Positions 10,901-42,911 are shown, counted from the stretch's first letter. The stretch: 64,000 nucleotides of DNA from Candidatus Woesebacteria bacterium (GCA_016432525.1 CP066693.1:30017-94016); one strand, 5' to 3'. Notes: generated by a model not told the origin, from the sequence alone. Numbers and translations are program-made.

Positions 10901-11501
10901 AAGCTACCAAAATTACAGCAAGAACAACAAAAAGAGTTTGCACATAAAACGATGTTGCGCCAACAATTAGAAACGAAAATAGCAAAATTAAATCTCTTCT
11001 CTTACCAGCTGTTAGATATTTAATTGAAAAATAGATAAACCAAGGCAAAAAACCATAAAAACTCACAAAAGCTTCATATGGATTGTAAAAATTCTGAACT
11101 GTTGCAAGATTTAAAAGATAATATAAAGCCGATGTAAATGAAATTAATCCAGACCCTTTTTTAGTCAATACATACACTCCAAATGGGCCCAAAAATAGCA
11201 TCCCAAATGTCCAAAAATATCTCAAAAAATTTTGCGGCAGAACTGCCGATGTCAAAAATAAAAACAGCTGTCGTGGCAAATCCGCTGCATGGGCCATTCC
11301 CCCTAAAAGCCCCAGTCCCTGATATTCTTGCCAAACTGCAGAAATAGACCTAGATATATTTACCCCGAAATTAAATTCAGGATGTAAATTATCCCAACCT
11401 GTAAGATAAGTTCCCGGAGTGTAATTTCTAACACAAACTATAAAAATAACAATAAAAAGCAAGACAGGGTAAATTGAAAAACGTTTTAAAAAGTTAACCA
11501 T
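7935..11501 (-). CDS. Very large (1188 aa) polytopic membrane protein. The N-terminal half has about 12-14 transmembrane helices and may be a GT-C/YfhO-like glycosyltransferase (not established); the C-terminal half is a large extracytoplasmic domain.
   Basis: A long uninterrupted ORF. Dense hydrophobic helices run through about residue 430. Large hydrophilic loops are rich in Y/W/N. I cannot place the fold reliably from sequence. Confidence 0.7.
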   Translation of the reverse strand: MVNFLKRFSIYPVLLFIVIFIVCVRNYTPGTYLTGWDNLHPEFNFGVNISRSISAVWQEYQGLGLLGGMAHAADLPRQLFLFLTSAVLPQNFLRYFWTFGMLFLGPFGVYVLTKKGSGLISFTSALYYLLNLATVQNFYNPYEAFVSFYGFLPWFIYFSIKYLTAGKRRDLILLFSFLIVGATSFYVQTLFVVLAVILVAFAIETIFRLKKTGIKRVLKLFLTLFIATSFWLFPVLYFTLTNSSVVTTSKINVLSTPETQLMNKGFGNLASVSTLRGFWLEYTDLGRDNKFTYLYDYWKKYLTSNTLAVGYLIFGISLIGIIYLLFNKKLNVRSSIFFVFVLGFYLMMGGSLPLPLFDQIFRSVFTKWAVLMALIYSIGIASFLALVSRFLKKEILLFVVASLIISGTLVFAKPVFQGYLISPTMRIDIPKQYFSLFDYFKNQDKQGRIAFYPVQTFWGWNFYTWGYRGSGFLWYGIPQPILDRAFDVWSNSDESFYHEINTAVYAEDATGVLNVIKKYNVTYVLMDKSVIYPEADRDVFKFDKSLAIFESIGGKIVFQKDFLTVFQFSKQEQPAFYSNVESSGNLVRKDSVFENVSDYASSIKVNNQYPFSDVLREEITGIDYSHDIGGAEYVSIKRKIEGILSKLFLPSLNSQTYVDLSGKASYENHQIKIEFNNPYMFKRNQELIELSNIKPILIDVRNDYSKVAIGISNTYFYLKNNETINISGVRVDTKESVQVKVFDASNGKSIDLTSLFLTSSINKCWEREGRSGAIGFKVNGDQIDFTSRDAIGCASLRLGEFQGSPESLLEVSLPYKSVSESRPDFCIVIEGRSDCLNNDVFYHSFVSTEWSEVTRQILVSSGKNYWLVVSARPSEKSGETWNISYKAPKVFSYPEIGSFSFSGIWNGFNSDRAIDVSFNKGDELEVTFPVKPEKVDFSKTGRNSPSNCDVLQRGEVYKKTISGRLFYEASGRGASCDFSNISNVATDNDFILRLVGENVTGRGMKFYVFDKATNNNDLEMLLNSGKFDQSFGLLKSVNFAKNEFILNLETRSLGGEDSLNYLDGVYLYSIPLNWLSNLKVFDGNIQPQENLVQVNSSRKIGTFWYEFDLNVLKDNSLFSLPQGYDKGWISLPASAHVKVNSWENGWILPKGHYKLVIFYWPQTLEFLGMVMIFGFVFLVIVDKARRRK

Positions 11502-12989: not shown

Positions 12990-14144
12990 TTAGGAAATCG
13001 TGATCGGGGCAAGGCCGTCAATGCCGGTCGGAGTAACAACGTCACCAACCTGAAGGCCAATAACCTTCAAATTGTCATTCGTGATCCAACCTGTCATCTT
13101 CGACATATCCCAAAATTGCGGGAACTCAACGGCCAAGACCTGGTCTTGCAAATCCACACTTTCGTGTGTCTTGTCGAACATCTCGGCGGTCCAGTTGCGC
13201 GTACCACTAGCGCGGATCAAAACCAAGGTATTGCACCCGGTCTGCCCAACGCTCGCGGTAAACGACTTTGCATCCTCATCCAGAATCCCATTCACCGACA
13301 CCAGCGTCGGGTTATCGATCATCGCGCATGATGCACTTTTCGGATCAGGTGACTTGACATCACTCTCGCCTGTCCCAAACTCGACAGTTGTCCCGTCGCT
13401 TTTGTGAAGGACAATAGGCCAATTGTAAGGCTTGTCAGCCTTCAACATGTTTTGGCGCTTCGCCATCACAAACTCGAGGGCAATCGACGGTTTGTTCAAA
13501 GAGTTCGGATCCTGATCCATGTTCCAACCTGGGTCATACGCCCAAATCGAACCTTCAGCGTAGTCGAAAAAACCATTTGTCGCTGAAAGAACAGATTTGT
13601 TCGCAAGCCCATTGGCCCTTAAAACCCAGATGTGGTGTTTGGACTCTTTCAGGTCCTGACGGCCTTCAATCAAAAGGTTACAACCGTTAGCAACAGAGTC
13701 CACCAGATATAACTTGGTGTCAAACCGTAGAGTGTTGGCAACAGGCGCGGTAATCCGTTTACCAGTACCCTTGATATCACACACAGGATACTTAAGAACA
13801 GGCTTTAAAGCCTCTTCAACCGCAGCCAAGTTGGCAACCTTCTCGCTCATCCAAGCCGCACGAACGTAGTGGCCGTCCTTATCAAACAGTCGGGCCAAAA
13901 CCCAGCTATCTCCGCCGACCTGCTTGCGGGCGTTTACCTCAACATAACCGTCAGCTGGTGCAACCGCAAGTTGAGCGCTCGACGAAAGTGCCGAAGCTCG
14001 CATGTTGGTCGGGTTCCCAACCTTGTAAAGGGCGGGAGCCACCCAAGTGACAGTAGCAGGCTCCTGAGCCTTAACCGGCATGCTGCCAATCAAAAGCCCA
14101 ACGACAAAAAGAAAAACGAATACGAAAGTCAGACGCTTGTTCAT
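12990..14144 (-). CDS. Secreted hypothetical protein (384 aa) encoded in a higher-GC islet.
   Basis: Signal peptide MNKRLTFVFVFLFVVGLLIGSMPVKAQEP. The coding sequence is clearly richer in G+C than the flanking genes (12990..15027). I recognise no motif. Confidence 0.6.
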   Translation of the reverse strand: MNKRLTFVFVFLFVVGLLIGSMPVKAQEPATVTWVAPALYKVGNPTNMRASALSSSAQLAVAPADGYVEVNARKQVGGDSWVLARLFDKDGHYVRAAWMSEKVANLAAVEEALKPVLKYPVCDIKGTGKRITAPVANTLRFDTKLYLVDSVANGCNLLIEGRQDLKESKHHIWVLRANGLANKSVLSATNGFFDYAEGSIWAYDPGWNMDQDPNSLNKPSIALEFVMAKRQNMLKADKPYNWPIVLHKSDGTTVEFGTGESDVKSPDPKSASCAMIDNPTLVSVNGILDEDAKSFTASVGQTGCNTLVLIRASGTRNWTAEMFDKTHESVDLQDQVLAVEFPQFWDMSKMTGWITNDNLKVIGLQVGDVVTPTGIDGLAPITIS

Positions 14145-19737: not shown

Positions 19738-19862
19738 TCTTTCGGCCTTGACCTATTTTCTCGTAAGGTTGCCCAAAAAATATCGTCGGCGCTAAAGCGT
19801 TTTACGACTCTGTTCGGAATGGGAAGAGGTAGTTCCACTTCGCTCAAAAAGCCGAAAGAGCA
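19738..19862 (-). rRNA. rrf: 5S rRNA.
   Basis: The reverse complement contains 5S core motifs (CCATTCCGAAC…GTAAAACGC…TAGCGCCGA) aligned to the E. coli 5S segment CCCATGCCGAAC…GTGAAACGCCGTAGCGCCGATG. Helix I closes as CTTTCGGC/GCCGAAAG. It lies just 3' of the 23S on the same strand. Confidence 0.6.
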
Positions 19863-20202
19863 AAAAACACAATCCTACCTACACAGGCAGATTTTATACT
19901 CTGATTACTGAAGAGAAAGGTTCGCATTAATTCGATCTATTCGCACTGGTAAGCTTAACGCCTTACGGCGCTTCCACTGCCAGCCGATTAACCTGGTGTT
20001 CTTCCAGGGATCTTATAGAGTTCTAATCTTGGAGTTGGCTTCCCACTTAGATGCTTTCAGTGGTTATCACATAGGAATGTAGCTACCCGGCGCTGCTACT
20101 GACGTAACAACCGGCACACCAGGGATTCCTCCAGCCTGGTCCTCTCGTACTAAGGCTAGCTCTCCTCAAAACTCAAAACGCATGTACTGGATAGAGTCCG
20201 AC

Positions 20203-21032
20203 ATTATTGTTACATCGATTATTCGATGGTCTCGTCATTTTCATTCTGCGAGACTCCCATTGTCGCCAACAGGGTCCGACCATATCTTGTCGTTTAAAAA
20301 AAACGACTCTGGCGTATGGCCTGTGAGGATTCTAATTTATATATGATTTAAGAATTTGCTCTCTGGACACCCTTCTTTTACGAGTATTCATAGAATATGC
20401 AATTTCTAAAATTCTTTTTATTCCACTTTTTTTTAAATGCTCTTTATTATTCACAAGTTGAATAACTTGCTTGAATTTTTCAAAAGCATCCTTTTTAATA
20501 ACAAACTTGTTATCAAAAAATGGAATAACCTTGTCTCTCAAACTTGGCAAATCACGTACAACAAATGCAAGTGAATTGTCATTTTTATCAGTTAAACTAT
20601 TTGCTTTAATATAGCCACAAAATAACCTCTCTTTTAATTTTTCCAAAACTTGCCTTCCAGCAGGATTTTGAGAAACCTTAAAAAAATAAATTACTTGCCA
20701 ACCAGTTTTTGTTTCTTTCGAAGGAACTATACCTATGTAAAACATCCCTTCTCCTTCAACAAAACCTGCAAAATAATCGTCACTAATAAATTGAGACATA
20801 TAAATTAGCCTTTCCTGCTGATAATCTCAGGTTAATGATTTTTACTAGTACACAAATTGTACACTAGTACACTAATATTTTACGAGACTTTCCAGCATAT
20901 AGCCAGATTTATATTCCTTTATTTAATTATCTAGACAAAAAGATAAACATTTTCTACTTCGAATCAGTTTGTTCAACGTCAAAAGGATGAGACCGCTCTT
21001 AGACTTGTCAACACCAAATGTCTTAGGTGTTC
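20203..21032 (-). mobile_element. Intron in the 23S rRNA (presumed group I) inserted at the I-CreI-type site after …GAGACAGTT; it carries a LAGLIDADG homing-endonuclease ORF.
   Basis: The rRNA match runs up to aactgtctc (21033..21041) and resumes at gagtccgac… (about 20202), matching E. coli 23S CGTCGTGAGACAGTT^CGGTCCCTATC. The intervening 830 nt are not rRNA-like and contain ORF 20332..20799. Confidence 0.7.
20332..20799 (-). CDS. LAGLIDADG-family homing endonuclease (single-motif type) encoded in the 23S intron.
   Basis: N-terminal motif FAGFVEGEGMF, a LAGLIDADG variant. About 155 aa, basic C-terminus, nested inside the rRNA gene. Confidence 0.85.
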   Translation of the reverse strand: MSQFISDDYFAGFVEGEGMFYIGIVPSKETKTGWQVIYFFKVSQNPAGRQVLEKLKERLFCGYIKANSLTDKNDNSLAFVVRDLPSLRDKVIPFFDNKFVIKKDAFEKFKQVIQLVNNKEHLKKSGIKRILEIAYSMNTRKRRVSREQILKSYIN

Positions 21033-21655
21033 AACTGTCTCGCGACGTTCTGAACCCAGCTCACGTAGCACTTTAATGGGCGAACAGACCAACCCTTGGA
21101 AGCTTCTACACCTCCAGGATGTGCTGAGCCGACATCGAGGTAGCGAACCGCGCCGTCGCTATGGACGCTCGGGCGCGACTACTCTGTTATCCCCGGGGTA
21201 GTTTTTATCCGTTAAGCTCCGTCCCAACCCATGAGGGATCGGAGGATCACTAAGACCTGCTTTCGCATCTGCGCGGCATGTCTGCCTTGCAGTCAAGCAC
21301 TCTTATACCTTTACGCTTACACTACGATTTCCATCCGTAGCAAGAGTACCTTTGTGCCCCTGCGTTACAATTTAGCAGGGTACCGCCCCAGTAAAACTGC
21401 CCATCTAGCACTTTCCCCTCCCACGTTTTCAGAGGGATTGGGTGAGATTCATCGTATTTCAAAGAGAGGTGTTACATTGTTGTCCCGCTAAGCGGGACTC
21501 CCTCCTACGCTACACAGTTAAAATCGATAAATCAATGCCAAACTACAGTAAAACTCCACGGGGTCTTTTTGTCCAAGTACATGTAGGCCGCGTCTTCACA
21601 GCCACCGCAATTTCGCCGAGTAGAGGCTTAAGACAGTTATTAGCTCGTGACGCCA

Positions 21656-21687
<32 letters not shown>

Positions 21688-22526
21688 CTTCGCTACCGTA
21701 GAACAGTTATAGTTACTGCTGCCGTTTACTGGAGCTTGAGTTCAGAGCCAGTACACCCGAAGGTGCAAAGACCCCTCCCCTTAACTTACCAGCACTGGGC
21801 AGGCGTCAGCCCGTATACATAAGATTAACTCTTTTGCACGGACATGTGTTTTTGATAAACAGTCGACTAATAAACTTTAGTTGCATCCCGCTAAGCGGGA
21901 AACCCATCTCCCTAAGTTACGGGTAATTTTTTTGCCGAGTTCCTTAAACCTCTTTCTCTCGCTCGCCTTAGTCTTCTCGACCAGCCCACCTGTGTCGGTT
22001 TGCGGTACGGCTTAATTTGTCTCTCACTGCGAATTTTTTCTTGTAAGCTAAATTAGCTAAAATCACCCCGCTATTCGCGAGACTTTGCACCACCTAAACT
22101 AAACATCGAAACGGATTTTCCAATCTCGACTATTTTGGCTTCTGCACGTCATTTCACAAAGACGCTTTAGAAATCTAACTCAGTCAATCCCCAGCTGATA
22201 ACGATACAAAATAAGTACTAGAATTTTAACTAGTTGTCCATCGGTTACGCCATTACGGCCTCACCTTAGGTACCGACTAACCCGTCGAGGACGAACCTCG
22301 CGACGGAAACCTTGGGCATTCGGCGGTCCTGATTCTCACAGGACTCGTTCGCTACTCATACCGGCATTCTCACTTCCAACCGCTCCACCACACTTTACAG
22401 TATAGCTTCACAGCTGTTGGAACGCTCCCCTACCACTCCTTTACACCCAAAGGTGTAAAAAAATCTCAAGCTTCGGCACTAACTTTAATCCTCGATAAAT
22501 CTTCGGCGCGTGCGCTCAGTCGACCA

Positions 22527-22585
<59 letters not shown>

Positions 22586-23156
22586 ATGAACGACACACTT
22601 CCTTTCAAACTTAAGTTAGATTTAGAGGCCTTAGCTGTGAGTCTGGATTCTTTTCCTTTAGTCGCATCAGCTTAGCCCGATGCGGCTGTCTAGTCGCCCA
22701 TATTTCAAGTTATTCGGAGTTTGATTGAATCAAATTGCTTGCGCTCTCTGACCCATCCAGTGCTCTACCACCCTGAAATTTTTGACGACCACGGTCCCTA
22801 TAGACCTTTCGGGGAGAACCAGCTATCTCCGAGTTCGATTGGCATATTACCGCTATCCACAAGTCATCCGATGTTATTGCAACAACAACCGGTTCGGGCC
22901 TCCTCCTGTATTTCTACAGGACTCACCCTGCTCATGGCTAGATCACTCGGTTTCGGGTCTATTCTAAGCTACATAATTGTTCGGGCTATTCACCCTAGCT
23001 TTCACTTTGCCTTCTCCCGCTAAACGGGATTAAGCTGCAGCATAAAATAACTCGCCGGTTCATTCTTCAATAGGCACGAGATCACCCCCATCGCTGAGAG
23101 CTCTCTCGGTTTGTCCGCAAACAGTTTCAGGTTCTATTTCACTGAGCGTTCCGCTC

Positions 23157-23198
<42 letters not shown>

Positions 23199-23844
23199 CG
23201 CACCCTTATTTAGTCTTGGAGGATGGTTCCCCCGGATTCCCACAGAGTATGTACTCCATGGTACTTGGGATACTTCTAGAGGTTTTTTTGATTTCGCATA
23301 CGAGGCTTTCACTCTCTATGGCTTGATATTCCAAAAAATTCTGCTATCGCAAAAACTCTCATATTAAAGTCCCGCAACCCCTTCGTGATGCAAGCATCAC
23401 GAAAGTTTAGACTGTTACCATTTCGCTCGCCGCTACTTCGGTAATCTTTGTTAATTTCTCTTCCTCACCCTACTTAGATGTTTCAGTTCGGGTGGTTCCC
23501 TCCATACACCTTAGTAATTCCGATAAATCGAAATATTTGGGGCATAGGTCCCCGATAAATCGAGGGGGTTTTCCCATTCGGACATCGCCGGATCAAAGCT
23601 TCGTGGCAGCTCCCCGGCGCGTTTCGCGCGCCATGTGCGTCCTTCTTCGGAAGATGCGACCTAGGCATCCACTGTCTGCGTTAGTATTAAACTGCGACCT
23701 TTCTCTTCAGATGTCAAAGTACAAACCATAATTATTAGTTATCCGTAAATAAGCTCTAACTAAAGTAAAGCCAATTTACCAATAACCAATCAATCTTGTG
23801 GACCGTTCTGTCCAGCTCTTTTTTAATGTATTCACGACCTTAAG

Positions 23845-23918
23845 TGGACCTGAGCGGGATCGAACCGCTGACCTCATCATTGCAAATGATGCGCTCTATC
23901 CAGCTGAGCTACAGGCCC
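23845..23918 (-). tRNA. tRNA-Ala (anticodon TGC).
   Basis: Reverse complement GGGCCTGTAGCTCAGCTGGATAGAGCGCATCATTTGCAATGATGAGGTCAGCGGTTCGATCCCGCTCAGGTCCA. G3:U70. Anticodon loop TTTGCAA. It occupies the canonical spacer position 5' of the 23S. Confidence 0.9.
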
Positions 23919-24162
23919 TCGACCTGTCGCCTTAGGCGACCGTTTTGGCCAGCTGAACTATCGGCCCGTAAATAAAATGTGCAACAAAAAACCGACACTA
24001 GGTCGGTCATCCGATACAAGCCACCCCAAAAAGGGAGTTGCGCTTATTAAAAATTATTAAAAAAAATTCCTTTGCTCATCAATAATTCAATCGGATACGT
24101 TACCTAAAATTAGGTTAAGGCAAATTATATATTTATTAAAGCTAATAGTCAATTAGTATTTG

Positions 24163-24234
24163 TGGGCGCGCATGGGATCGAACCATGGACCTCTTTCTTA
24201 TCAGGAAAGCGCTCTACCACTGAGCCACGCGCCC
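24163..24234 (-). tRNA. tRNA-Ile (anticodon GAT).
   Basis: Reverse complement GGGCGCGTGGCTCAGTGGTAGAGCGCTTTCCTGATAAGAAAGAGGTCCATGGTTCGATCCCATGCGCGCCCA. Anticodon loop CTGATAA. Canonical Ile–Ala spacer tRNA pair. Confidence 0.9.
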
Positions 24235-24326
24235 AAGCTCAACTAGTTTACCTCAAATTGGCCTTAAACTCAACGAACATGCTATAATAGACCCATAATC
24301 CGCAGTTTGACAGAAAGGAAACGGGT

Positions 24327-24638
24327 ATGTTCAGAGATTTTGGTGATAGTAGAACCAGAACCAACCGTCCAATTTTCAGTTCTAACCAAATTAAAAATGT
24401 TTCTGAGCTCAAAAGAGGAATGAAAGTGCTTGTGTGTTCAAGTCTTAAAAACCATAAAAGCTACGTTGCCATCTTAACAATCAGCCCAGACCAAAACGAA
24501 AAAGGAGAATGGTTTATACATTACAAAAGAGAAGAAGACAAGATCGGGCTGGAAAGTCGCACTTTCCTTTGCGACCACAGCGTTGTTTCTTACGAAGACG
24601 GTAGATGGAACAACGCCAACTGGTTAGAAAAGATTTGA
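24327..24638 (+). CDS. Hypothetical protein (103 aa) encoded within the rRNA spacer region on the opposite strand.
   Basis: ORF with an upstream purine-rich stretch (acagaaaggaaacgggtATG). I recognise no motif. Confidence 0.4.
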   Translation: MFRDFGDSRTRTNRPIFSSNQIKNVSELKRGMKVLVCSSLKNHKSYVAILTISPDQNEKGEWFIHYKREEDKIGLESRTFLCDHSVVSYEDGRWNNANWLEKI

Positions 24639-24643
24639 TTTTT

Positions 24644-24681
24644 GCCCCTCTAAAGAGGAAAACTTTCTCTTCTAGAGGGGC
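24644..24681 (+). promoter_or_regulatory. Perfect 9-bp-stem hairpin immediately upstream of a TATAAT-like box and the 24702 start codon.
   Basis: GCCCCTCTA-aagaggaaaactttctcttc-TAGAGGGGC followed by tcgTATATAATacaattagtATG. It may act as a terminator for the upstream ORF and/or an operator or leader structure. Confidence 0.3.
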
Positions 24682-24701
24682 TCGTATATAATACAATTAG
24701 T

Positions 24702-26975
24702 ATGGCAAAATTGGTTACACTTCTTCTTAAACTCCCCAGAAACACTGAGGTAACACCTGAATCAGCCCAAACTTTTTTGGCAGCTTTAACTCAAATTAAT
24801 TCTCGTTCAACTCTCCATAGAATCAGGGGAATCCAAGAACGCCCGCTGGCTTTAGAAATTGCTTTAGTTAATCAACAAATCAGGTTTCAAATTACTTGCT
24901 CTGAGGATATGGCAGGTTTTGTCGAAACTCAAATCCAGTCTAACTATCCTCTTGTACTTATTGAAAAAGTTCCTGACTCTTTAGAAAATCAACCACTTTT
25001 TGTAACCGAACTAACTCTCAAAAAAGGAAATTTTTATCCCCTGGCAATTTTTTCAAGCTTTACAGATATAGATCCTCTTTCATCTATTCTCTCAGTTCTC
25101 TCAAAATCAAACCCTGATCAAATTTCAATCATCCAATTTGCATTAGAGTCAACCTCTGGCTCTTGGCAATCCATGGGGCAAAAATACTCAGACTACGGGA
25201 CAAAAAAAGAGGATGGAACTTATAGCCCAAGACCGGACTCAGCTATCATAAAAGAAAAAATTTCTTACCCAGGTTTTCTTGTCTCAATTCGCCTAGGATC
25301 AAACACGAAAGAAACCCTAAGAGAATTATCATCTGCCTTTGGTGTTTTCACCCGCGCTGATGCAAACTCTTTTTCGTCAAAAAGTAAAGGAATCTTTGGA
25401 TCTTCTCCTCTCAAAAACCTTCGCGACAGAACTGTTGCAGGTGGTGTAATTCTTAATCTTCCAGAACTCGCTACTGTTTGGCATCTTCCATCTGCCAAAA
25501 TAAAAACCTCGTCAATTGTTTGGGGAACATCAGTTTTATCAGAGCCACCAGATAATCTTCCAATTTCAGATGACAAAGACGAAAAAGCAAAAGAAGACAT
25601 CAACTTCTTTGGAAAAGTTCTTTTCAAAAACCGCGAAACAATCTACGGAATAAAAACAGTTGATCGCCGCCGCCACATCTGGTTAGTTGGAAAGACAGGA
25701 ACAGGTAAATCTACCTTCATAGCCAACATGGCAATTGACGATCTTAAAAAAGGTCGTGGTCTTGGAGTAATTGATCCTCATGGCGATCTTTGCGATATAA
25801 TCTTGGATTTCATTCCCTCAAGTCGCATCAACGATACAGTCATTTTTAATCCAGCAGATAAAGACTTTCCAATTGTCATCAATCCTCTTGAAGTTAAAAA
25901 CAAAGAAGAAGCAGAGCTTGTGGTTTCAGGAATTGTTGCAATTTTTAATAAAATTTTTGGATTTAGTTGGGGACCTCGTCTTGAATATATTTTAAGAAAC
26001 ACTCTTTTAACTCTTGCAGCAATTCCTGATAGCACTTTGGAAAATGTCTTAACAGCTTTAACTAACCCAACATATCGAAAAAGAATGATTGACCAAACAA
26101 CTGACCCAGTTCTCAAAAATTTCTGGGTTAATGAGTTTAGTAAAATGCCAGACAAACAAAGAGAAGAAGCAGTTGCCCCAATTCTAAACAAAGTTGGTCA
26201 ATTTGTTACATCCCCTCTTATTAGGAGAATAATAGGAAGCCCTCACAGTTCAATTCAAATCGATCAAATCATGAATGAAGGAAAAATAATTCTTGCCAAT
26301 CTTTCTCAAGGACGAGTAGGTGAAGATAACGCAGCCTTATTAGGAGCAATGTTAATCACCAAATTCCAGTTAGCTGCAATGCGAAGAGTTGATATTCCAG
26401 AAACCGAAAGACGCGATTTTTTCCTATATGTTGACGAATTCCAAAATTTTGCAACTCCATCATTTATGAAAATCTTATCAGAGGCAAGAAAATACCGACT
26501 CTCTTTAATGCTTGCAAATCAATATATGGCTCAAATCCCCGAAGAAGTTCAAAAATCAATTTTGGGAAATGCCGGAACCATTGTCTCATTCACAGTAGGA
26601 GCAGAAGATGGCGCCATTCTTCAAAAAGAATTTGGAGAAGTATTTACCCAAAACGACTTGGTCAATTTAGTAAATCACCAAGTAGCAATGAGACTTATGG
26701 TTGATGGACACTCAACTCGTCCATTTCTATCCCAAACTCTTCCACTTCCTCAATCAAGAAATCAAAATAAGCAAACGGTGATTAAAGTTTCTAGAGAGCG
26801 TTGGTCCAATAAAACTCCAATTCCGCCTCCACCAGTAATAATAGATTTGCCACCAACTCCTCAGCCAATGCACCAACAGCAGCAAGGCTATCGTCCTCAA
26901 TATCATTCTCAAAAAAGATTCGGCAGTTACAGAAGAAACTTCAAATCGAGTGTTGACCAGACAAAACATCAGTGA
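24702..26975 (+). CDS. TraD/TraG/VirD4-family (type IV coupling-protein-like; FtsK/HerA superfamily) P-loop ATPase. It has a soluble N-terminal domain of about 290 aa and a low-complexity Pro/Gln-rich C-terminal tail.
   Basis: HIWLVGKTGTGKSTFIANMAIDDLKKGRGLGVIDPHGDL (Walker A plus the VIDPxGD pattern, as in TrwB/TraD). Walker B / substrate-binding segment FFLYVDEFQNFATPSF…LSEARKYRLSLMLANQ. No N-terminal transmembrane helices. Confidence 0.65.
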   Translation: MAKLVTLLLKLPRNTEVTPESAQTFLAALTQINSRSTLHRIRGIQERPLALEIALVNQQIRFQITCSEDMAGFVETQIQSNYPLVLIEKVPDSLENQPLFVTELTLKKGNFYPLAIFSSFTDIDPLSSILSVLSKSNPDQISIIQFALESTSGSWQSMGQKYSDYGTKKEDGTYSPRPDSAIIKEKISYPGFLVSIRLGSNTKETLRELSSAFGVFTRADANSFSSKSKGIFGSSPLKNLRDRTVAGGVILNLPELATVWHLPSAKIKTSSIVWGTSVLSEPPDNLPISDDKDEKAKEDINFFGKVLFKNRETIYGIKTVDRRRHIWLVGKTGTGKSTFIANMAIDDLKKGRGLGVIDPHGDLCDIILDFIPSSRINDTVIFNPADKDFPIVINPLEVKNKEEAELVVSGIVAIFNKIFGFSWGPRLEYILRNTLLTLAAIPDSTLENVLTALTNPTYRKRMIDQTTDPVLKNFWVNEFSKMPDKQREEAVAPILNKVGQFVTSPLIRRIIGSPHSSIQIDQIMNEGKIILANLSQGRVGEDNAALLGAMLITKFQLAAMRRVDIPETERRDFFLYVDEFQNFATPSFMKILSEARKYRLSLMLANQYMAQIPEEVQKSILGNAGTIVSFTVGAEDGAILQKEFGEVFTQNDLVNLVNHQVAMRLMVDGHSTRPFLSQTLPLPQSRNQNKQTVIKVSRERWSNKTPIPPPPVIIDLPPTPQPMHQQQQGYRPQYHSQKRFGSYRRNFKSSVDQTKHQ

Positions 26976-27192
26976 TAAAAATGTATTAGAGATAAACGGC
27001 AAACCTCTCCTTTGCAGATGAGCGAAAATCGGTGCTTACTCGTCAATTGAAGGCCGTAAGTCTCCGAGGAAGAAGTTTGATGCATAAATTGCATAAAATG
27101 TATTCATCAAACACCTCAAACTTCTTCCTCTCCTTTTTTTAAAAAACTTTAAAATACTCCCATAGTCAACAAATAACTGGAGGTACCTTAAA

Positions 27193-27696
27193 ATGTCCAA
27201 GTTAGTCATGGCAATTGCCATATTCACGTCAATCTTTTTCGTATCGCTACCAATTCACGCGCAGGAAAATCTAAATGTTACAGTTTCTGCATCAGAGCTT
27301 CCACAAACAGGAACAAAAATTCTCGCAACAATGAATAATGGAATCAGCTTCGCGTTCGTCTCAAAAGACGAAAGTGGAGGGTGTGTCCAAATTCGTTGGT
27401 CAAACATAGCTATAAAATGCTTTGACAGAAGCACCTTGGAAAAAATTGTGATAACAACTATTCCATCTGGAGAAACACAGTATTTGAGTTTCTCCATAGT
27501 TGTCTTTAGAAAAGGAAACCTAGCTAAAGGAATCGATAGTATTTCTTCAGAAACCAAGCTGACAGAACTCGTCAAAGGCATCAAAAACCTCTTTAAAAAC
27601 GTAGCAGAATTGCTTGAAGCAAGAGATATTCATTGTATTGCAACTGCGGCTGCAGAAACTAAATCGGTCACCTTAGACATTTGGACAGAAATATAG
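27193..27696 (+). CDS. Secreted hypothetical protein (167 aa).
   Basis: A good ribosome-binding site (ctggaggtacc) 7-8 nt upstream. Signal peptide MSKLVMAIAIFTSIFFVSLPIHAQE. A terminator-like hairpin follows directly. Confidence 0.5.
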   Translation: MSKLVMAIAIFTSIFFVSLPIHAQENLNVTVSASELPQTGTKILATMNNGISFAFVSKDESGGCVQIRWSNIAIKCFDRSTLEKIVITTIPSGETQYLSFSIVVFRKGNLAKGIDSISSETKLTELVKGIKNLFKNVAELLEARDIHCIATAAAETKSVTLDIWTEI

Positions 27697-27705
27697 AATA
27701 AACCA

Positions 27706-27753
27706 AAAACCCGCTTTCAAGACGAGATTGTTCTCATCCCAAAAGCGGGTTTC
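27706..27753 (+). terminator. Inverted repeat after the 27193..27696 gene.
   Basis: AAACCCGCTTT-caagacgagattgttctcatccca-AAAGCGGGTTT followed by ctctttg. An 11-bp stem with a long loop and a weak T tract. Confidence 0.4.
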
Positions 27754-27999
27754 TCTTTGACCACCAAGACCATGACTGAAAGTGTGACTCGGTTATTTTC
27801 CTTAAATCAAAAAGACTTAAGGATAGCCTTAACCGTTGTCTAAAAGACTGGGTGTAAAAATTCACACTCCTTAGAAAGGAGGTGATCCATCCCCACCTTC
27901 CAGTAGGGATACCTTGTTACGACTTAATCCTCATCGCTGGTTTCAACTTCCTCCGATTCAATCGAAGTTCGGCTGCCCCCAACTTTGCTGACTTGACGG

Positions 28000-28877
28000 A
28001 TTGCACTTCATTGAAGTTATCGTGCGTTCCCAATCACATCAATGTGACGTCTGGTTTCTGTCCAGACTCCCGGCGAGCGGCTTTCCCGCACCGGGCGAGC
28101 CATAATGCCTATTCATTGAAAATTTCAGTCCTTTAATATATTCCAACTCTTTCGAATTAAGTTTCCTAATATCTTGTCTGCCTTTTACTATTCCAGCTAT
28201 TTTTCGAAAAGCTTCAAAACTTTTCGCTTTATAACCTAATAGCTTATATTTCTGAAAAAACGGGATAATAACATTATAGATATCGTCTCGTTTTGTTACT
28301 TCAAAAACAAAAGCAGGAAGTCGACCATCTCTAGCCGAACTTTTCTGATATACAGTTCCAATTCTAAAAAATTTCTGGACTTTAAAAAGTAAAGTTTTGT
28401 TTCCTTCTGCCTGAGCAATAAAAAATCTTAGATCAATTCTAAAATCTTTTCTCAAACTTACTAAAAAACACCCTTCTCCTTCTGTAAATCCAACAATATA
28501 TAAAGCTGAAAGCATTACGTATTTCCCTTCAATAATTACAATTTCAGTGTAACGAATATTACCCGAAAATGTCAATACCTACTATGGAAATGCTGACTTC
28601 CTAAAAAGCAATTACTTCAATCTTTTTAGGATCTCCCAGGGTCATTATGTTCTCTCTTCCTAGCATGAATGATGGGCTTTTTAAATCGACTTCCTTCCGA
28701 CCGCCCGGCGAAAGTCGTGCGAGCCTTTTTGATATCATCCCTGCTATTTGCCTCAAGCCCTCCAACCATATCAGTTACCCAATATGGTCTGCTTATTTTT
28801 TGGCTACTTGGTAGGATTTCAACCTACTAGAGGACATAACTGCCTGGCGCGTTGTTACCTAAATCTATATTACTATA
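28000..28877 (-). mobile_element. Intron in the 16S rRNA inserted within the conserved TGACGG^GCGGTGTGTAC block (near E. coli position 1395-1400); it carries a LAGLIDADG ORF.
   Basis: The rRNA match stops at …acttgacgg (27999) and resumes at ggcggtgtgtacaag (28878). The intervening sequence holds ORF 28039..28575 plus about 300 nt of structured non-rRNA sequence. Confidence 0.7.
28039..28575 (-). CDS. LAGLIDADG-family homing endonuclease encoded in the 16S intron.
   Basis: Motif VGFTEGEGCF near the probable true start (MLSALYIVGFTEGEG). About 160-178 aa. Confidence 0.85.
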   Translation of the reverse strand: MTFSGNIRYTEIVIIEGKYVMLSALYIVGFTEGEGCFLVSLRKDFRIDLRFFIAQAEGNKTLLFKVQKFFRIGTVYQKSSARDGRLPAFVFEVTKRDDIYNVIIPFFQKYKLLGYKAKSFEAFRKIAGIVKGRQDIRKLNSKELEYIKGLKFSMNRHYGSPGAGKPLAGSLDRNQTSH

Positions 28878-30366
28878 GGCGGTGTGTACAAGACCTGAGA
28901 ACGTATTCACCGGAGTATAGCTGACCTCCGATTACTACCAATTCCGCGTTCATGAGGGCGAGTTGCAGCCCTCAATCCCCACTGAGAAGCCGTTTTTGGG
29001 ATTAGCTCCAGATTACTCTTTGGCAACCCATTGTCGGCTCCATTGTAGCATGTGTGTCGCCCAAGGTATAAGGGCCATGCTGACTTGACATCATCCCCAC
29101 TTCCTTCCCGCACTAGGCGAGATAGTATCCCATGGATATATAACATGGGAAAGGGGTTGCGCTCGTTACCCCACTTAAGGGAACACCCCACGGCACGAGC
29201 TGACGACAGCCATGCAACACCTGTTGCCCCTTTTTTAATTACTTAAAAATCAGTCCATATTTCTACAGACCTAAAGAGGGCAATGTCAAACCTTGGTAAG
29301 GTCCTACGGTTCGTCTCGAATTGAACCACATGCTCCACTGGTTGTGCAGGTCCCCGTCAATTCCTTTGAGTTTTAACCTTGCGGTCGTACTCCCCAGGCG
29401 GCTCGCTTAACGCGTTAGCTTACGGAACTGAATCTTACGATCCAATCCCTAGCGAGCATAGTTTACGGCTAGGACTACAGGGGTCTCTAATCCCTTTTGC
29501 TCCCCTAGCTGTCGTTCCTCAGCGTCAAAAAATTCCTAGTTACCTGCCTTCGCCCTTGGAGTTCCTATTGGTATCAACGGATTTCACCCCTACACCAATA
29601 GTTCCAGTAACCCCGAAATATTTCAAACCAGTTAGTATTATCCCCCTTCCCGAGGTTGAGCCCCGGTCTTTAAAGAATAACTTAACAAGTCGCCTACGAA
29701 ACGCTTTACGCCCAGTAAATCCGGATAACGCTTGTGCCCCACGTATTACCGCAGCTGCTGGCACGTGGTTAGCGGGCACTTATTCTACTAATTATCTCTA
29801 ATTAATCAAAAGAGGTTTACGATCCGAAGACCTTCATCCCTCACGCGGTGTCGCGACGTCAGACTTTCGTCCATTGCGTACGATTCCTAGTTGCTGCCAC
29901 CCGTAGGTGTATGGGCCGTGTCTCAGTCCCATTCTGGGGGGTCATGCTCTCACACCCCCTACCCGTCGTAGGTTTGGTAGGCCATTACCCTACCAACTGC
30001 CTGATGGGAAATAGGCTCCTCCATCGGCGCGCAGTTATGCGCTTTTATCCGAAGATGTCATCCGGTATTAGCTCGTCTTTCGACGAGGTATTCCGAACCA
30101 TTGGGTAGATTCCTATTTTATACTCAGCCGTTCGCGACTAACTGTATTGCTACAGCTCGTCCCACTTGCATGCCTAAGGCACACCGCCAGCGTTCATCCT
30201 GGGCCAGGATCAAACCCTCAAAAAAGTGACGGAAACAAACTAAATAAAATTAAATAGCGTGTTCCATCGGAAACGCTTCCAGTCATGTCTTGATTGTCAA
30301 AGTTCTGTGTTATGAAGTGTTGTTACCCAAAAGGGAAGTTAACGCTTAGATTTTTTTGAATAAAAA

Positions 30367-30384: not shown

Positions 30385-30462
30385 ATCCAAATTTGCCTTC
30401 AAAAGCTGGTCCTTTAATTCATCTAGAGATATTATATCAGATTATTTATGGAGGTCAATGCC

Positions 30463-40087: not shown

Positions 40088-41083
40088 ATGCAAAACGGAG
40101 AAAACCGAAGCATGAACGGATTCACACAAGTAGAGAACTTCCTTATCGATGAGGTTATGCCTCGTCTAAGGCGACCTACAGCCTGGAGACTGATCACTGC
40201 GATCCTAAGGGACTCTGTGGGTTGGCAGCGCGAGTGGACTGAATGGCATACACGAAAATGGTGTGCAGAAAAAGCAGGGTGTTCAGTGGAAGCAATCACT
40301 GATGTTTGGAATGAGACAGTGCCAAAGATTCTCCTCATGCAAGATGATCGATTCAAAATGCTCACAACGACTGCTGAACGACAGCATGCGGGCAACAGAA
40401 GGAGGCTTACTCGAATGAAAATCAATCCACAGATTCACAAAACATACTTGAGTATTTTTTCCTCAAGTGACTATCACCCAAAGAAAAAATCCACAAGTAC
40501 TCGAGGGAAAAGTGCCGACACTCAAAGAAAGGATGATAGAAAGGAGAATGATCCTGAAGGATCAGCTGAACTCCGTTCTGACATATCAGATAAGCAGAAA
40601 AAACTACTACAACTGGAGGCGTTACTCTCCATAGATGATATTCAGTTTCTGAAATCGCTACTCGATAACTACCCCGAGCTTGATGCTGTCAAAGTAGCCA
40701 CAGACGCTTCAGAGTGGATCAACGATGAAGGACGAGCAAATATCGGTAGTCGAAAACACCTGATAAAAAAGTTTTTCAGCACAGCCCATGAGAAGCTCTT
40801 GAAGCAAAAGCACATGTATGGGCTCAATCAGGCGATGATTTTTCTGGACGGATTCTATCGAATCTATCCTGAACGAAAACCCAAAAAGTTGAAAACTCTG
40901 CTACGACAAGCAAAATTCTACATTGAGGTAGTTGGAAAAGGATACACTAATGAGCAAATGCTTGAGACAGCAAAATGGATGACTTCTATGCTCCATTGGG
41001 CGAATCGATTTGGGTTTGAGGATGTCATCACCGTCTTACCTGCTTATTGTGTGGAAAAAAGAAAAAGGAGGTTGCAAACATGA
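40088..41083 (+). CDS. Putative replication-initiation / replisome-organiser protein (phage or plasmid type).
   Basis: N-terminal wHTH-like segment ENFLIDEVMPRLRRPTAWRLITAILRDSVGWQREW resembles phage replication protein / DnaD-like N-domains. Basic, low-complexity middle section. Tentative. Confidence 0.4.
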   Translation: MQNGENRSMNGFTQVENFLIDEVMPRLRRPTAWRLITAILRDSVGWQREWTEWHTRKWCAEKAGCSVEAITDVWNETVPKILLMQDDRFKMLTTTAERQHAGNRRRLTRMKINPQIHKTYLSIFSSSDYHPKKKSTSTRGKSADTQRKDDRKENDPEGSAELRSDISDKQKKLLQLEALLSIDDIQFLKSLLDNYPELDAVKVATDASEWINDEGRANIGSRKHLIKKFFSTAHEKLLKQKHMYGLNQAMIFLDGFYRIYPERKPKKLKTLLRQAKFYIEVVGKGYTNEQMLETAKWMTSMLHWANRFGFEDVITVLPAYCVEKRKRRLQT

Positions 41084-42900
41084 ATGCTCGTTTGAAAAGA
41101 ATGACCAAAAGAGGTAGTATGTATGATACAAGGAGTATGAAAAATTCAACTTCGATAGGAGAAATCCGATGGGCAGAATACAATCGTCGTTCATCTGACG
41201 AGGGGAAGAAAAAGCAGCTACTTTCAAATAAGTCACAGACTGATGAGCTCGCGAAAAGATATCCCGAAAACGACTTCAAGCGCAAGCATCATATTCAAGA
41301 GTCAGATAGTGCGTTCCATCCGAATAACAGACCAAGGTTCGAACAGTTAATGCAACTTATTGAAGCTGGTGAGATCAACGGCATCATCTGTTGGCATCCT
41401 GACAGGCTCTCAAGGAACTCAATTGATGCAGGACGCATCGTTCATTTGCTCAAGATTGGACAACTCAAGGAGATCAAGTTTGGCTCATATCACTTCGAAA
41501 ATACACCTGAAGGAAGGATGTTTCTGCAGTTAGCTCTGAGTCAGTCAGAATACTACTCGGACAAGTTGTCTGTAGATGTCAAACGAGGCAACACAACACA
41601 CCTGGAGAACGGACAGTGGCTCGGTGCTGCTCCACCAGGCTACCTCAACCTTATTGATCCACTTACAAAGCAAAAATATGTTGATCTCGATCCTGAGAGA
41701 TTCCCACTTCTGCAAAAAGCTGGCAAGCTTTTTCTCACTGGTCGCCATCGAGCAATGGAAGTCTTGGATATTCTCAATAATGAGTGGGGATACCGCAGTC
41801 GAAAAACCGAGAAACAGGGTGATAAACCAATGAGCAAAAGTGGTTTCTACAAGTTCCTTTCAAATCCTTTCTACTTTGGTCAAATGATAAGATCCGAGGG
41901 TGAGTTCACGGGTAGTCACAAGTCAATGTTCACCGAGTCAGAGTTCGATCGAATCCAGATTCTACTTGGTAGAAAGGGACGACTTAGGAACGATGTTCAT
42001 AAGTTTCCTTTCAAAGAGTTACTCAAGTGTGGAGAATGTGGTGGGTCAGTTACCTGTGAGGAAAAATGGCAGATAATTTGCTCGAACTGCAAAACCAAGT
42101 TCCACAAGGGCAAAAAGACCGATCAGTGCCCACAGTGCCATACTTTGATTGAGGCAATGGTCGATCCGACCATTCTCCACTATGTGTATTATCACTGCAC
42201 GAAGCGGGTGAACAGAAACTGTACTCAGGGTTGTATTTCAAAAGGTGATCTTGAAAAAACTGCAGATGTGGAACTTCAAAAGTTTGAGATCGATGAGACC
42301 TTCAGAGACTGGGCTATCGAGCATTTGAATAAGCTCAATAAGATTGAGGTCACTGATCGGGAAAAAATTAGAGGATCACTCAAAGTTGCATACGATGATT
42401 GTGTCAAAAAGATTGATAACTTACTCTCGTTGAAGATCTCAGTACAGAACACTGATGGTAGTGCGATTTCAGAAGCAGAGTACCTTAGCCAAAGACGGTC
42501 ACTACTGGAAGAAAAAGAGAGCCTTCTGGAACGACTCAATGATGTAGATCAGAGACAAAACACCTGGCTTGAACTTTCAGAGCGCACTTTCAATTTTGCT
42601 CTCTATGCTCGTCACTGGTTCGCCTACGGAGACTTACTACAAAAAACTCAGATACTTGCTGGACTTGGTTCGAACCTTCTGATACAGGACAAAAAGTTAT
42701 TGATAGATCGGCACAAACAGCTTTTTCTAATTGAGAAAGGGAAAAAGGAAGCAGAGAATCTTGGCTACTCGTTCGAACCTACAAAAAAGCCCGATTTGAC
42801 AACACAATCGGCTCCTTCTGAAGTCATTCGTTCTGCTTGGCTGCGGGACAGGGATTCGAACCCCGGTACCAAGATCCAAAGTCTTGTGTCCTACCACTAG
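41047..42900 (+). CDS. Large serine recombinase (resolvase/invertase catalytic domain, recombinase domain and zinc ribbon). The start is probably the second Met near 41080.
   Basis: Catalytic YNRRSSDEG (Y-x-R-x-S-S). Recombinase-domain segment LSRNSIDAGRIVHLL. Zinc ribbon CGECGGSVTCEE…CSNCKTKF…CPQCH. The last roughly 20 codons overlap tRNA-Gln on the opposite strand. Confidence 0.85.
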   Translation: MCGKKKKEVANMNARLKRMTKRGSMYDTRSMKNSTSIGEIRWAEYNRRSSDEGKKKQLLSNKSQTDELAKRYPENDFKRKHHIQESDSAFHPNNRPRFEQLMQLIEAGEINGIICWHPDRLSRNSIDAGRIVHLLKIGQLKEIKFGSYHFENTPEGRMFLQLALSQSEYYSDKLSVDVKRGNTTHLENGQWLGAAPPGYLNLIDPLTKQKYVDLDPERFPLLQKAGKLFLTGRHRAMEVLDILNNEWGYRSRKTEKQGDKPMSKSGFYKFLSNPFYFGQMIRSEGEFTGSHKSMFTESEFDRIQILLGRKGRLRNDVHKFPFKELLKCGECGGSVTCEEKWQIICSNCKTKFHKGKKTDQCPQCHTLIEAMVDPTILHYVYYHCTKRVNRNCTQGCISKGDLEKTADVELQKFEIDETFRDWAIEHLNKLNKIEVTDREKIRGSLKVAYDDCVKKIDNLLSLKISVQNTDGSAISEAEYLSQRRSLLEEKESLLERLNDVDQRQNTWLELSERTFNFALYARHWFAYGDLLQKTQILAGLGSNLLIQDKKLLIDRHKQLFLIEKGKKEAENLGYSFEPTKKPDLTTQSAPSEVIRSAWLRDRDSNPGTKIQSLVSYH

Positions 42901-42911
42901 ACGATCCCGCA
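42841..42911 (-). tRNA. tRNA-Gln (anticodon TTG).
   Basis: Reverse complement TGCGGGATCGTCTAGTGGTAGGACACAAGACTTTGGATCTTGGTACCGGGGTTCGAATCCCTGTCCCGCAG. U1:A72 and G73 (glutamine identity). Anticodon loop CTTTGGA. Closely related to the tRNA-Glu at 46080..46152. Confidence 0.8.

Follow-up and report, generated by a model that had tools for sequence, protein, structure and literature searches.

A probably lineage-typical split ribosomal RNA locus surrounds a resident ATPase gene in a Candidatus Woesebacteria genome

We analyzed a 64,000-nucleotide stretch of a Candidatus Woesebacteria genome (GCA_016432525.1 CP066693.1:30017-94016; hereafter the window, with positions counted from its first letter), in which the 16S ribosomal RNA (rRNA) gene is separated from the remaining rRNA and transfer RNA (tRNA) genes by protein genes on the opposite strand, among them one encoding a 757-aa P-loop ATPase. 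The RNA genes of the window were located with Rfam and ARAGORN. On the minus strand they run in the order 16S, tRNA-Ile, tRNA-Ala, 23S and 5S, which is the order that an initial annotation, made by a model from the sequence, had claimed. The genes that define the locus are as follows.

27874..30225, minus strand: 16S rRNA gene (5' end at 30225; an insertion of ~880 nt included)
24702..26975, plus strand: gene for the 757-aa soluble P-loop ATPase (Pfam, structure models)
24234..24162, minus strand: tRNA-Ile(GAT) (ARAGORN)
23918..23844, minus strand: tRNA-Ala(TGC) (Rfam, ARAGORN)
19932..23694, minus strand: 23S rRNA gene (split close to its 3' end; 3' exon at 19932-20177)
19740..19856, minus strand: 5S rRNA gene (Rfam)

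The Rfam match to 16S stops at 28829, ending early because of the ~880-nt insertion, while the true 3' end of the gene is at 27874; conserved 16S 3'-terminal sequences are present as AAGTCGTAACAAGGTA at 27925..27910 and GGATCACCTCCTT at 27888..27876. With the 3' end at 27874, the gap between 16S and tRNA-Ile (27873..24235) measures 3,639 nt, in agreement with the ~3.6 kb claimed beforehand, and 4,179 nt (27873..23695) separate the end of 16S from the start of 23S. Inside the gap between 16S and tRNA-Ile are three open reading frames (ORFs) of 103, 757 and 167 aa, all on the plus strand and at the coordinates first reported for them. The locus is consequently unlinked in the sense of Brewer et al. 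(spacer >1500 bp) and of type D in the scheme of Lui et al. Directly upstream of tRNA-Ala, at ~23920-23975 on the minus strand, there is also a tRNA-like remnant (GGGCCGATAGTTCAGCTGGCC...) that neither ARAGORN nor Rfam called.

We compared the locus with those of close relatives found through the ATPase. More than 4,900 homologues of this protein were scored, the best 120 being 63-76% identical to that of the window. Twelve distinct relatives were examined (L001, L002, L081, L083, L084 and L086-L092; L082 and L085 duplicate two of these), and their rRNA and tRNA genes were mapped by BLAST and ARAGORN on the retrieved flanking DNA. Identity to the window is 63-76% for their ATPases and 80-88% for their 16S genes, the latter in the eight with a near-full-length alignment. 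In all 12 relatives the ATPase gene is opposite in strand to the rRNA genes and adjoins tRNA-Ala/23S, and in 11 of them, representing every relative whose contig extends that far, 16S lies beyond the ATPase gene. Given 16S identities of 80-88%, the arrangement spans deep divergence. The spacers of the relatives measure 3.0-9.0 kb, and no protein gene other than that of the ATPase recurs in every one: the spacer of L087 holds practically nothing else, and the others contain toxin-antitoxin genes, genes for LAGLIDADG proteins and various small ORFs. Many further ATPase homologues are known only from contigs of 2.5-8 kb, which are probably metagenome assemblies that break at the flanking rRNA genes.

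These observations bear on the proposal, raised in the initial annotation, that the insert is itself a mobile cargo. The recent landing of part of a conjugative or integrative element in a formerly intact 16S-23S spacer would fit the matches of the 757-aa protein to conjugation-family Pfam domains, the variability of the remaining spacer content, in which toxin-antitoxin genes, LAGLIDADG genes and small ORFs are present in some relatives and absent from others, and the orphan status of the 167-aa ORF. It sits poorly with an ATPase gene that occupies the same site in the same orientation in 12 of 12 relatives, some with 16S identity as low as 80%, with a composition that equals the background (GC 0.38 for the insert compared to 0.383 for the window), and with a family that is found phylum-wide in housekeeping neighborhoods. 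No relaxase and no integrase, transposase or other recombinase is encoded in the spacer, and no terminal inverted or direct repeats or target-site duplications bound it. A search of positions 24100-27900 for terminal repeats turned up nothing beyond local hairpins and brief matches at the level expected by chance, and we rejected the mobile-element explanation, which we regard as very improbable. No insertion event is visible in this genome.

Signals that could govern transcription of the locus were then compiled for both strands, as follows.

30431..30458, minus strand: promoter-like site of 16S, TTGACC-16-TATAAT with TG, located 206 nt ahead of the gene's 5' end
27755..27782, minus strand: 16S trailer arm CTTTCAGTCATGGTCTTGGTGGTCAAAG, pairing with a leader arm at ~30276-30303 (presumed processing stem)
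27697..27752, minus strand: intrinsic-terminator-like hairpin followed by TTTTTGGTTT, 120-170 nt past the 16S 3' end
within 24162..24250, minus strand: extended -10-like element TGAGGTAAACT of tRNA-Ile, ending 10 nt before the tRNA
24124..24152, minus strand: near-consensus promoter TTGACT-17-TATAAT, 10 nt past tRNA-Ile and 205 nt before tRNA-Ala
24687..24692, plus strand: TATAAT box 9 nt upstream of the ATPase start codon (probable promoter, leaderless mRNA)
27066..27141, plus strand: terminator-like hairpin past the ATPase gene, a 15-bp perfect stem (27066-27130) followed by TCCTTTTTTT

Promoter scans of this kind return consensus matches in AT-rich DNA, a weakness that is offset for the 23S-unit promoter by its invariance across otherwise unalignable sequence. 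Sites comparable to the one upstream of 16S (10-12 of 12 positions matching) lie 170-350 nt upstream of 16S in six of the seven relatives whose contigs reach that far. Between tRNA-Ile and tRNA-Ala, a promoter-like site matching 11 of 12 positions is present on the rRNA strand in all 12 relatives, reading TTGAC[G/T]-17-TATAAT in 11 of them and TTGACA-17-TATTAT in L091, and an alignment of ten loci left its two hexamers as the sole invariant blocks. A terminator-like hairpin (GACCGACCTAGTGTCGGTT plus a T-run) is located at 23990-24008 on the minus strand, between this promoter and tRNA-Ala; it could be an attenuator, a processing site or a product of chance.

The hairpin that follows 16S (27707-27752) has 20 pairs, 8 of them G-C, and a folding energy of -28.9 kcal/mol over the 60 nt before the T-run. 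A G+C-rich hairpin with a T-run likewise lies 120-190 nt past 16S in L081, L083, L084, L088 and L089. For the leader and trailer of 16S, the duplex energy of the whole region was no different from that of shuffled sequences (-47.7 vs -41.7 +/- 4.9), such that support for this stem comes only from the contiguous complementary arms of ~27 nt. The corresponding stem of 23S reached -50.9 kcal/mol, compared to -30.7 +/- 4.1 for shuffles.

The orientation of tRNA-Ile proved to be flexible. It has the orientation seen in the window in L001, L002, L081, L087-L090 and L092, and is inverted, onto the plus strand, in L083, L084, L086 and L091, or a third of the relatives. A TGnGGTAAATT-like motif nevertheless precedes it in 9 of 10 loci irrespective of its orientation. 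Because the gene is flipped in four relatives and yet keeps its -10-like motif in the loci inspected, tRNA-Ile appears to be an independent unit.

Conserved promoter-like and terminator-like signals thus support the view that 16S and 23S/5S are transcribed separately, which was one of two scenarios offered at the outset. The idea that such separation would be unusual did not hold, inasmuch as 27 of 34 circularized genomes of the candidate phyla radiation (CPR) have unlinked rRNA genes (PMC8172020). The other scenario, in which a single primary transcript starts at the 16S promoter and crosses the spacer as far as 5S, antisense to protein genes that rRNA transcription would silence or regulate, draws on the fact that the RNA genes share one strand and lie 3.6-4.2 kb apart, and on three relatives (L086, L087 and L002) in which a clean terminator past 16S was not found. 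We consider it unlikely in view of the strong hairpin and T-run past 16S in the window and five relatives, the near-consensus promoter upstream of tRNA-Ala in every locus, the separate leader/trailer stems of 16S and 23S, and the inversion of tRNA-Ile in four relatives, which is incompatible with its membership in such a transcript.

On the opposite strand, the ATPase gene lacks a Shine-Dalgarno sequence, and 10 of the 12 relatives (L001, L002, L081, L084, L086-L090 and L092) share the TATAAT-like box, which they have 6-10 nt upstream of the start codon. Owing to these two features the ATPase mRNA is probably leaderless, and their recurrence suggests a leaderless mRNA conserved within a CPR lineage.

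The 757-aa protein contains all of the ATPase motifs first noted in it: a Walker A motif, GKTGTGKS, at residue 330, followed by VIDPHGD, and a Walker B motif, FLYVDE(FQNF), at 574. That it lacks a transmembrane anchor was borne out too, as a membrane-spanning segment was not detected: Kyte-Doolittle means over 19 residues peak at 1.53, inside the ATPase domain. Three Pfam families scored above threshold, namely TraG-D_C (39.7 bits; cut-off 22), TrwB_AAD_bind (33.1 bits; cut-off 20.5) and DUF87. The NCBIfam models for conjugative type IV coupling proteins (T4CPs) reached just 12-34 bits against cut-offs of 250-650, VirB4_plasma (16 bits) and TraC-F-type (12 bits) were likewise far under their cut-offs, and Pfam VirB4 (CagE_TrbE_VirB) gave no match to the protein at E<=0.01. 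DUF8128 (PF26449) is assigned to an identical protein, and to nearly all of the 120 homologues, in precomputed Pfam annotation; our local Pfam copy did not report it.

A sequence search of the PDB yielded a match to TrwB at the level of the P-loop only (E 2e-4), and a comparison of folds was therefore needed. Models of the protein had mean predicted local distance difference test (pLDDT) scores of 82-83 overall, that obtained using AlphaFold2 with 49 homologues scoring 82.4. In the models, residues 1-295 correspond to DUF8128 and adopt a soluble alpha/beta fold resembling the VirB4 N-terminal domain, residues ~300-705 form a nucleotide-binding domain like those of VirB4 and TrwB, into which an all-helical segment (401-525) is inserted, and residues 705-757 make up a disordered, P- and Q-rich tail. 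Foldseek aligned TrwB over ~410 columns (TM 0.64-0.67, 14-16% sequence identity), with TrwB a top match for the C-terminal half and DotL and Cag-beta also among the best structural matches; ranked alongside TrwB were full-length, collinear alignments of ~860 columns to TrwK/VirB4 of R388. The protein accordingly combines a VirB4-type N-terminal domain with a RecA-like C-terminal ATPase domain, and a membrane anchor seemed to be missing because this soluble N-terminal domain followed by an ATPase is the VirB4-like architecture. Taken together, the models place the protein, which is soluble, in the VirB4/VirD4 branch of the FtsK-HerA P-loop superfamily. The original description of a TraD/VirD4-like coupling ATPase is consistent with the Pfam T4CP domains and the TrwB match, but not with the N-terminal 295 residues, which fold like the VirB4 N-terminal domain.

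We likewise considered whether the protein functions as a type IV coupling protein in DNA conjugation, serving a type IV secretion system (T4SS) and a relaxase whose genes lie elsewhere in the genome. In favor of such a role, TraG-D_C and TrwB_AAD_bind pass their gathering scores, TrwB, DotL and Cag-beta rank high in the structural comparison, and T4CP genes are often located apart from virB4 (PMC12102498). The N-terminal membrane anchor that defines T4CPs is absent, however, with a VirB4-like domain in its stead, and relaxases were detected in just 103 Patescibacteria genomes compared to the 2,918 that have T4CP homologues (PMC12102498). Moreover, the t4cp gene of Ca. S. epibionticum, which is not necessarily the orthologue of the 757-aa gene, was reported to be non-essential for epibiotic growth, unlike T4SS genes (PMC12102498). 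Pfam found no relaxase, VirB4 or T4SS families among the 10 largest ORFs of the window, whose domains were instead lectin-like, TPR, glycosyltransferase, glycoside hydrolase, DNA ligase and serine recombinase, and no T4SS or relaxase families in the spacer or among the conserved neighbor-gene clusters with Pfam-scanned representatives. Genes of the VirB3, VirB6 or VirB8 type were not seen nearby either, among neighbors that were partly scanned and without a systematic search for small membrane proteins. A conjugation role is accordingly not indicated, no relaxase or T4SS gene having been found nearby, and we judge it unlikely. Tentatively, the protein is most likely a ring-forming motor of the VirB4/VirD4 class, which would act either as a second coupling-type motor on the chromosomal type IV secretion-like apparatus of Patescibacteria or as a solo DNA translocase.

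More distant homologues, 35-55% identical over their best segment and covering the full protein length, occur in other Microgenomates, Saccharimonadia, Gracilibacteria, Peregrinibacteria/Peribacteria and Abawacabacteria. No rRNA gene was present within their retrieved flanks, which extend up to 10 kb on each side. The gene is convergent with RadA in some Microgenomates and is followed by a cytidylyltransferase-like (NadD-type) gene in others; in Gracilibacteria and Peregrinibacteria an S1-domain gene lies directly upstream on the same strand, and in Saccharimonadia TopA and a sigma-region-4/HARE-HTH protein gene lie upstream, with FtsW downstream. In the window, too, RadA and S1 adjoin the locus on its 5S side. 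Because they stand beside both this locus and distant homologues, the ATPase gene looks like a vertically inherited resident of its neighborhood; between lineages it is the rRNA genes that appear to differ, whereas the ATPase gene seems to stay in its chromosomal setting. The fold suggests that the protein descended from type IV secretion ATPases, and the neighborhoods suggest a housekeeping role. Cysteine-rich proteins of ~540 aa flank the ATPase gene in the Gracilibacteria/Peregrinibacteria loci (L032-L080); the family has 90 members across 34 loci, often several copies per locus, and a treble-clef zinc finger at the N-terminus.

A further-reaching proposal would make the DUF8128 protein a so far unrecognized housekeeping motor shared across the Patescibacteria, a soluble hybrid of a VirB4 N-terminal domain and a VirD4 nucleotide-binding domain exapted from type IV secretion ATPases. 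Its fixation in the split rRNA cluster of Woesebacteria, where the gene is probably leaderless, convergent with 16S and divergent from the 23S promoter, and its adjacency to S1 in Gracilibacteria and Peregrinibacteria would then reflect coupling to ribosome synthesis or growth rate. If true, the association of DUF8128 with rRNA would be functional or regulatory, beyond mere synteny. We hold it to be improbable at present.

Our preferred interpretation, to which we assign a probability of roughly 0.8, is that this is a lineage-typical split rRNA locus (Woesebacteria, Microgenomatia, CPR) with four transcription units arranged around a resident ATPase gene. An ancestral 16S-tRNAIle-tRNAAla-23S-5S operon would have been broken long ago around a vertically inherited housekeeping gene. 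The first unit would be 16S, with its own promoter, a leader/trailer processing stem and an intrinsic terminator facing the convergent protein genes; the second, the opposite-strand ATPase gene, with a -10 box near its ATG, probably a leaderless mRNA, and a terminator of its own; the third, tRNA-Ile, read from its own extended -10 element; and the fourth, tRNA-Ala-23S-5S, read from the near-consensus sigma-70 promoter between the two tRNAs. Relatives do hold the same gene in the spacer along with conserved separate promoters, which is the very pattern that the initial annotation had set against its own suggestion of an insertion.

Several points weigh against this interpretation. The relatives were ascertained via the ATPase and partly picked for long contigs, and are hence a non-random draw from the clade. 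One genome classified as Woesebacteria by SILVA is reported to be operonic, with a 1,660-bp spacer, and the arrangement is therefore not universal. For L086, L087 and L002, the lack of a clean terminator past 16S means that some read-through antisense to the ATPase gene may occur. All of the promoters and terminators are consensus matches whose backing is conservation alone, and the biochemical role of the ATPase is read from its fold only, with NCBIfam equivalog scores of 34 bits vs 250-650.

If the split-locus interpretation is correct, 16S and 23S should not be counted as one operon in Woesebacteria-type genomes, and the locus offers a clean, comparatively supported case of a canonical rRNA operon fragmenting into pieces with their own promoter or terminator. 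The ATPase, highly conserved and without T4SS context (63-76% protein identity vs 80-88% for 16S), may merit experiments.

Both large rRNA genes carry intron-like insertions. As read from the sequence, 16S is broken after ...GTACACACCGCC by ~880 nt (28877..27997, minus strand) near E. coli position ~1400, and the insertion contains a LAGLIDADG ORF at 28039-28575 (Pfam 2.6e-18). A homologous insertion is found at the same site in L092, with 71% identity over 812 nt. The 23S gene is split near its 3' end by ~0.8 kb (20178-20962, minus strand) that holds a second LAGLIDADG ORF (20332-20799) and gives a sub-threshold match to group I introns (15.6 bits); the 3' exon, 20177..19932, corresponds to Rfam model positions 2654-2912. 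Annotation in the style of Rfam thus cuts short both 16S and 23S at their introns.

The features of the spacer other than the ATPase gene and the signals listed above are the following.

24327..24638, plus strand: 103-aa ORF, of a small family of unnamed ~100-140-aa proteins
24644..24681, strand not assigned: inverted repeat of 18 nt, placed after the 103-aa ORF and ahead of the ATPase gene
27193..27696, plus strand: 167-aa ORF, an orphan, with a GGAGGT Shine-Dalgarno sequence 8 nt upstream

The 103-aa ORF matches 35 other cluster representatives at E<=1e-3, all distant, small and nameless, and a homologue with 30% identity occupies the same upstream position in L086. It matched no Pfam family, and its sole NCBIfam match was at E 0.065 (12.4 bits vs a 269-bit cut-off). 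Compared with 5.8 billion protein clusters, the 167-aa ORF found one near-identical copy and nothing else, and no homologue of it was present in the spacers of any relatives examined. Its N-terminus is hydrophobic (Kyte-Doolittle 2.15), making secretion of the product plausible, and it may be a real, strain-specific gene. We take both small ORFs to be variable accessory passengers of a spacer that would tolerate gene gain and loss. The hairpins once placed at both ends of the insert were confirmed in part: a strong one stands at the 16S end (27707-27752), but none was found within 24235-24326, and the remaining spacer hairpins, at 24644-24681 and 27066-27130, are internal.

Elsewhere in the window, an ORF for a 617-aa large serine recombinase (41047-42900, plus strand; Resolvase domain 1.8e-15) ends inside or beside a tRNA-Gln gene (42838-42911, minus strand), possibly at one boundary of an integrated element. 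Two long minus-strand ORFs, 7935-11501 (1,188 aa) and 12990-14144 (384 aa), gave no Pfam match at E<=1e-3.

Nothing in these findings overturns current understanding, since unlinked rRNA genes of CPR and orphan "T4CP" genes of Patescibacteria are both already published. In the literature searched, we found no description of a constant intervening gene in this clade, of defined break points with their own promoters, or of the VirB4-like fold of DUF8128, and nothing on DUF8128 by name. The rRNA genes of CPR are mostly unlinked (Brewer et al. 2020), 16S-23S distances of 2,872, 8,467 and 8,985 bp are on record for Microgenomatia, and the published categories include this very type, with the genes on the same strand, >2 kb apart and opposite-strand genes between them (PMC8172020). 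The locus described here is alike in strand, in a gap of >2 kb, in its opposite-strand genes and in the 3.0-9.0 kb range of the relatives. It differs in that the papers give distances rather than the content of the gap, which here always holds the same ATPase gene, in that the break point is defined by an inter-tRNA promoter and a post-16S terminator, and in that tRNA-Ile is a separate, invertible unit.

With respect to the ATPase, 5,713 T4CP homologues have been reported in 2,918 Patescibacteria genomes, 148 of them near virB4 and with relaxases rare, and the authors already suggested a possible exaptation for another function (PMC12102498). By description, the 757-aa protein resembles these orphan homologues in being chromosomal, widespread in the phylum and without an adjacent virB4 or relaxase; its DUF8128 domain, VirB4-NTD-like fold and position at an rRNA locus are features that PMC12102498 does not describe. 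It shares with TrwB (R388) and VirD4 the Walker A and B motifs and a nucleotide-binding domain containing an inserted all-helical domain, yet has a soluble N-terminal domain of 295 residues in place of their transmembrane domain and no linkage to a relaxase or T4SS. With VirB4/TrwK it shares the soluble two-domain architecture and collinear Foldseek alignments of ~860 columns, while its sequence profiles favor the T4CP families.

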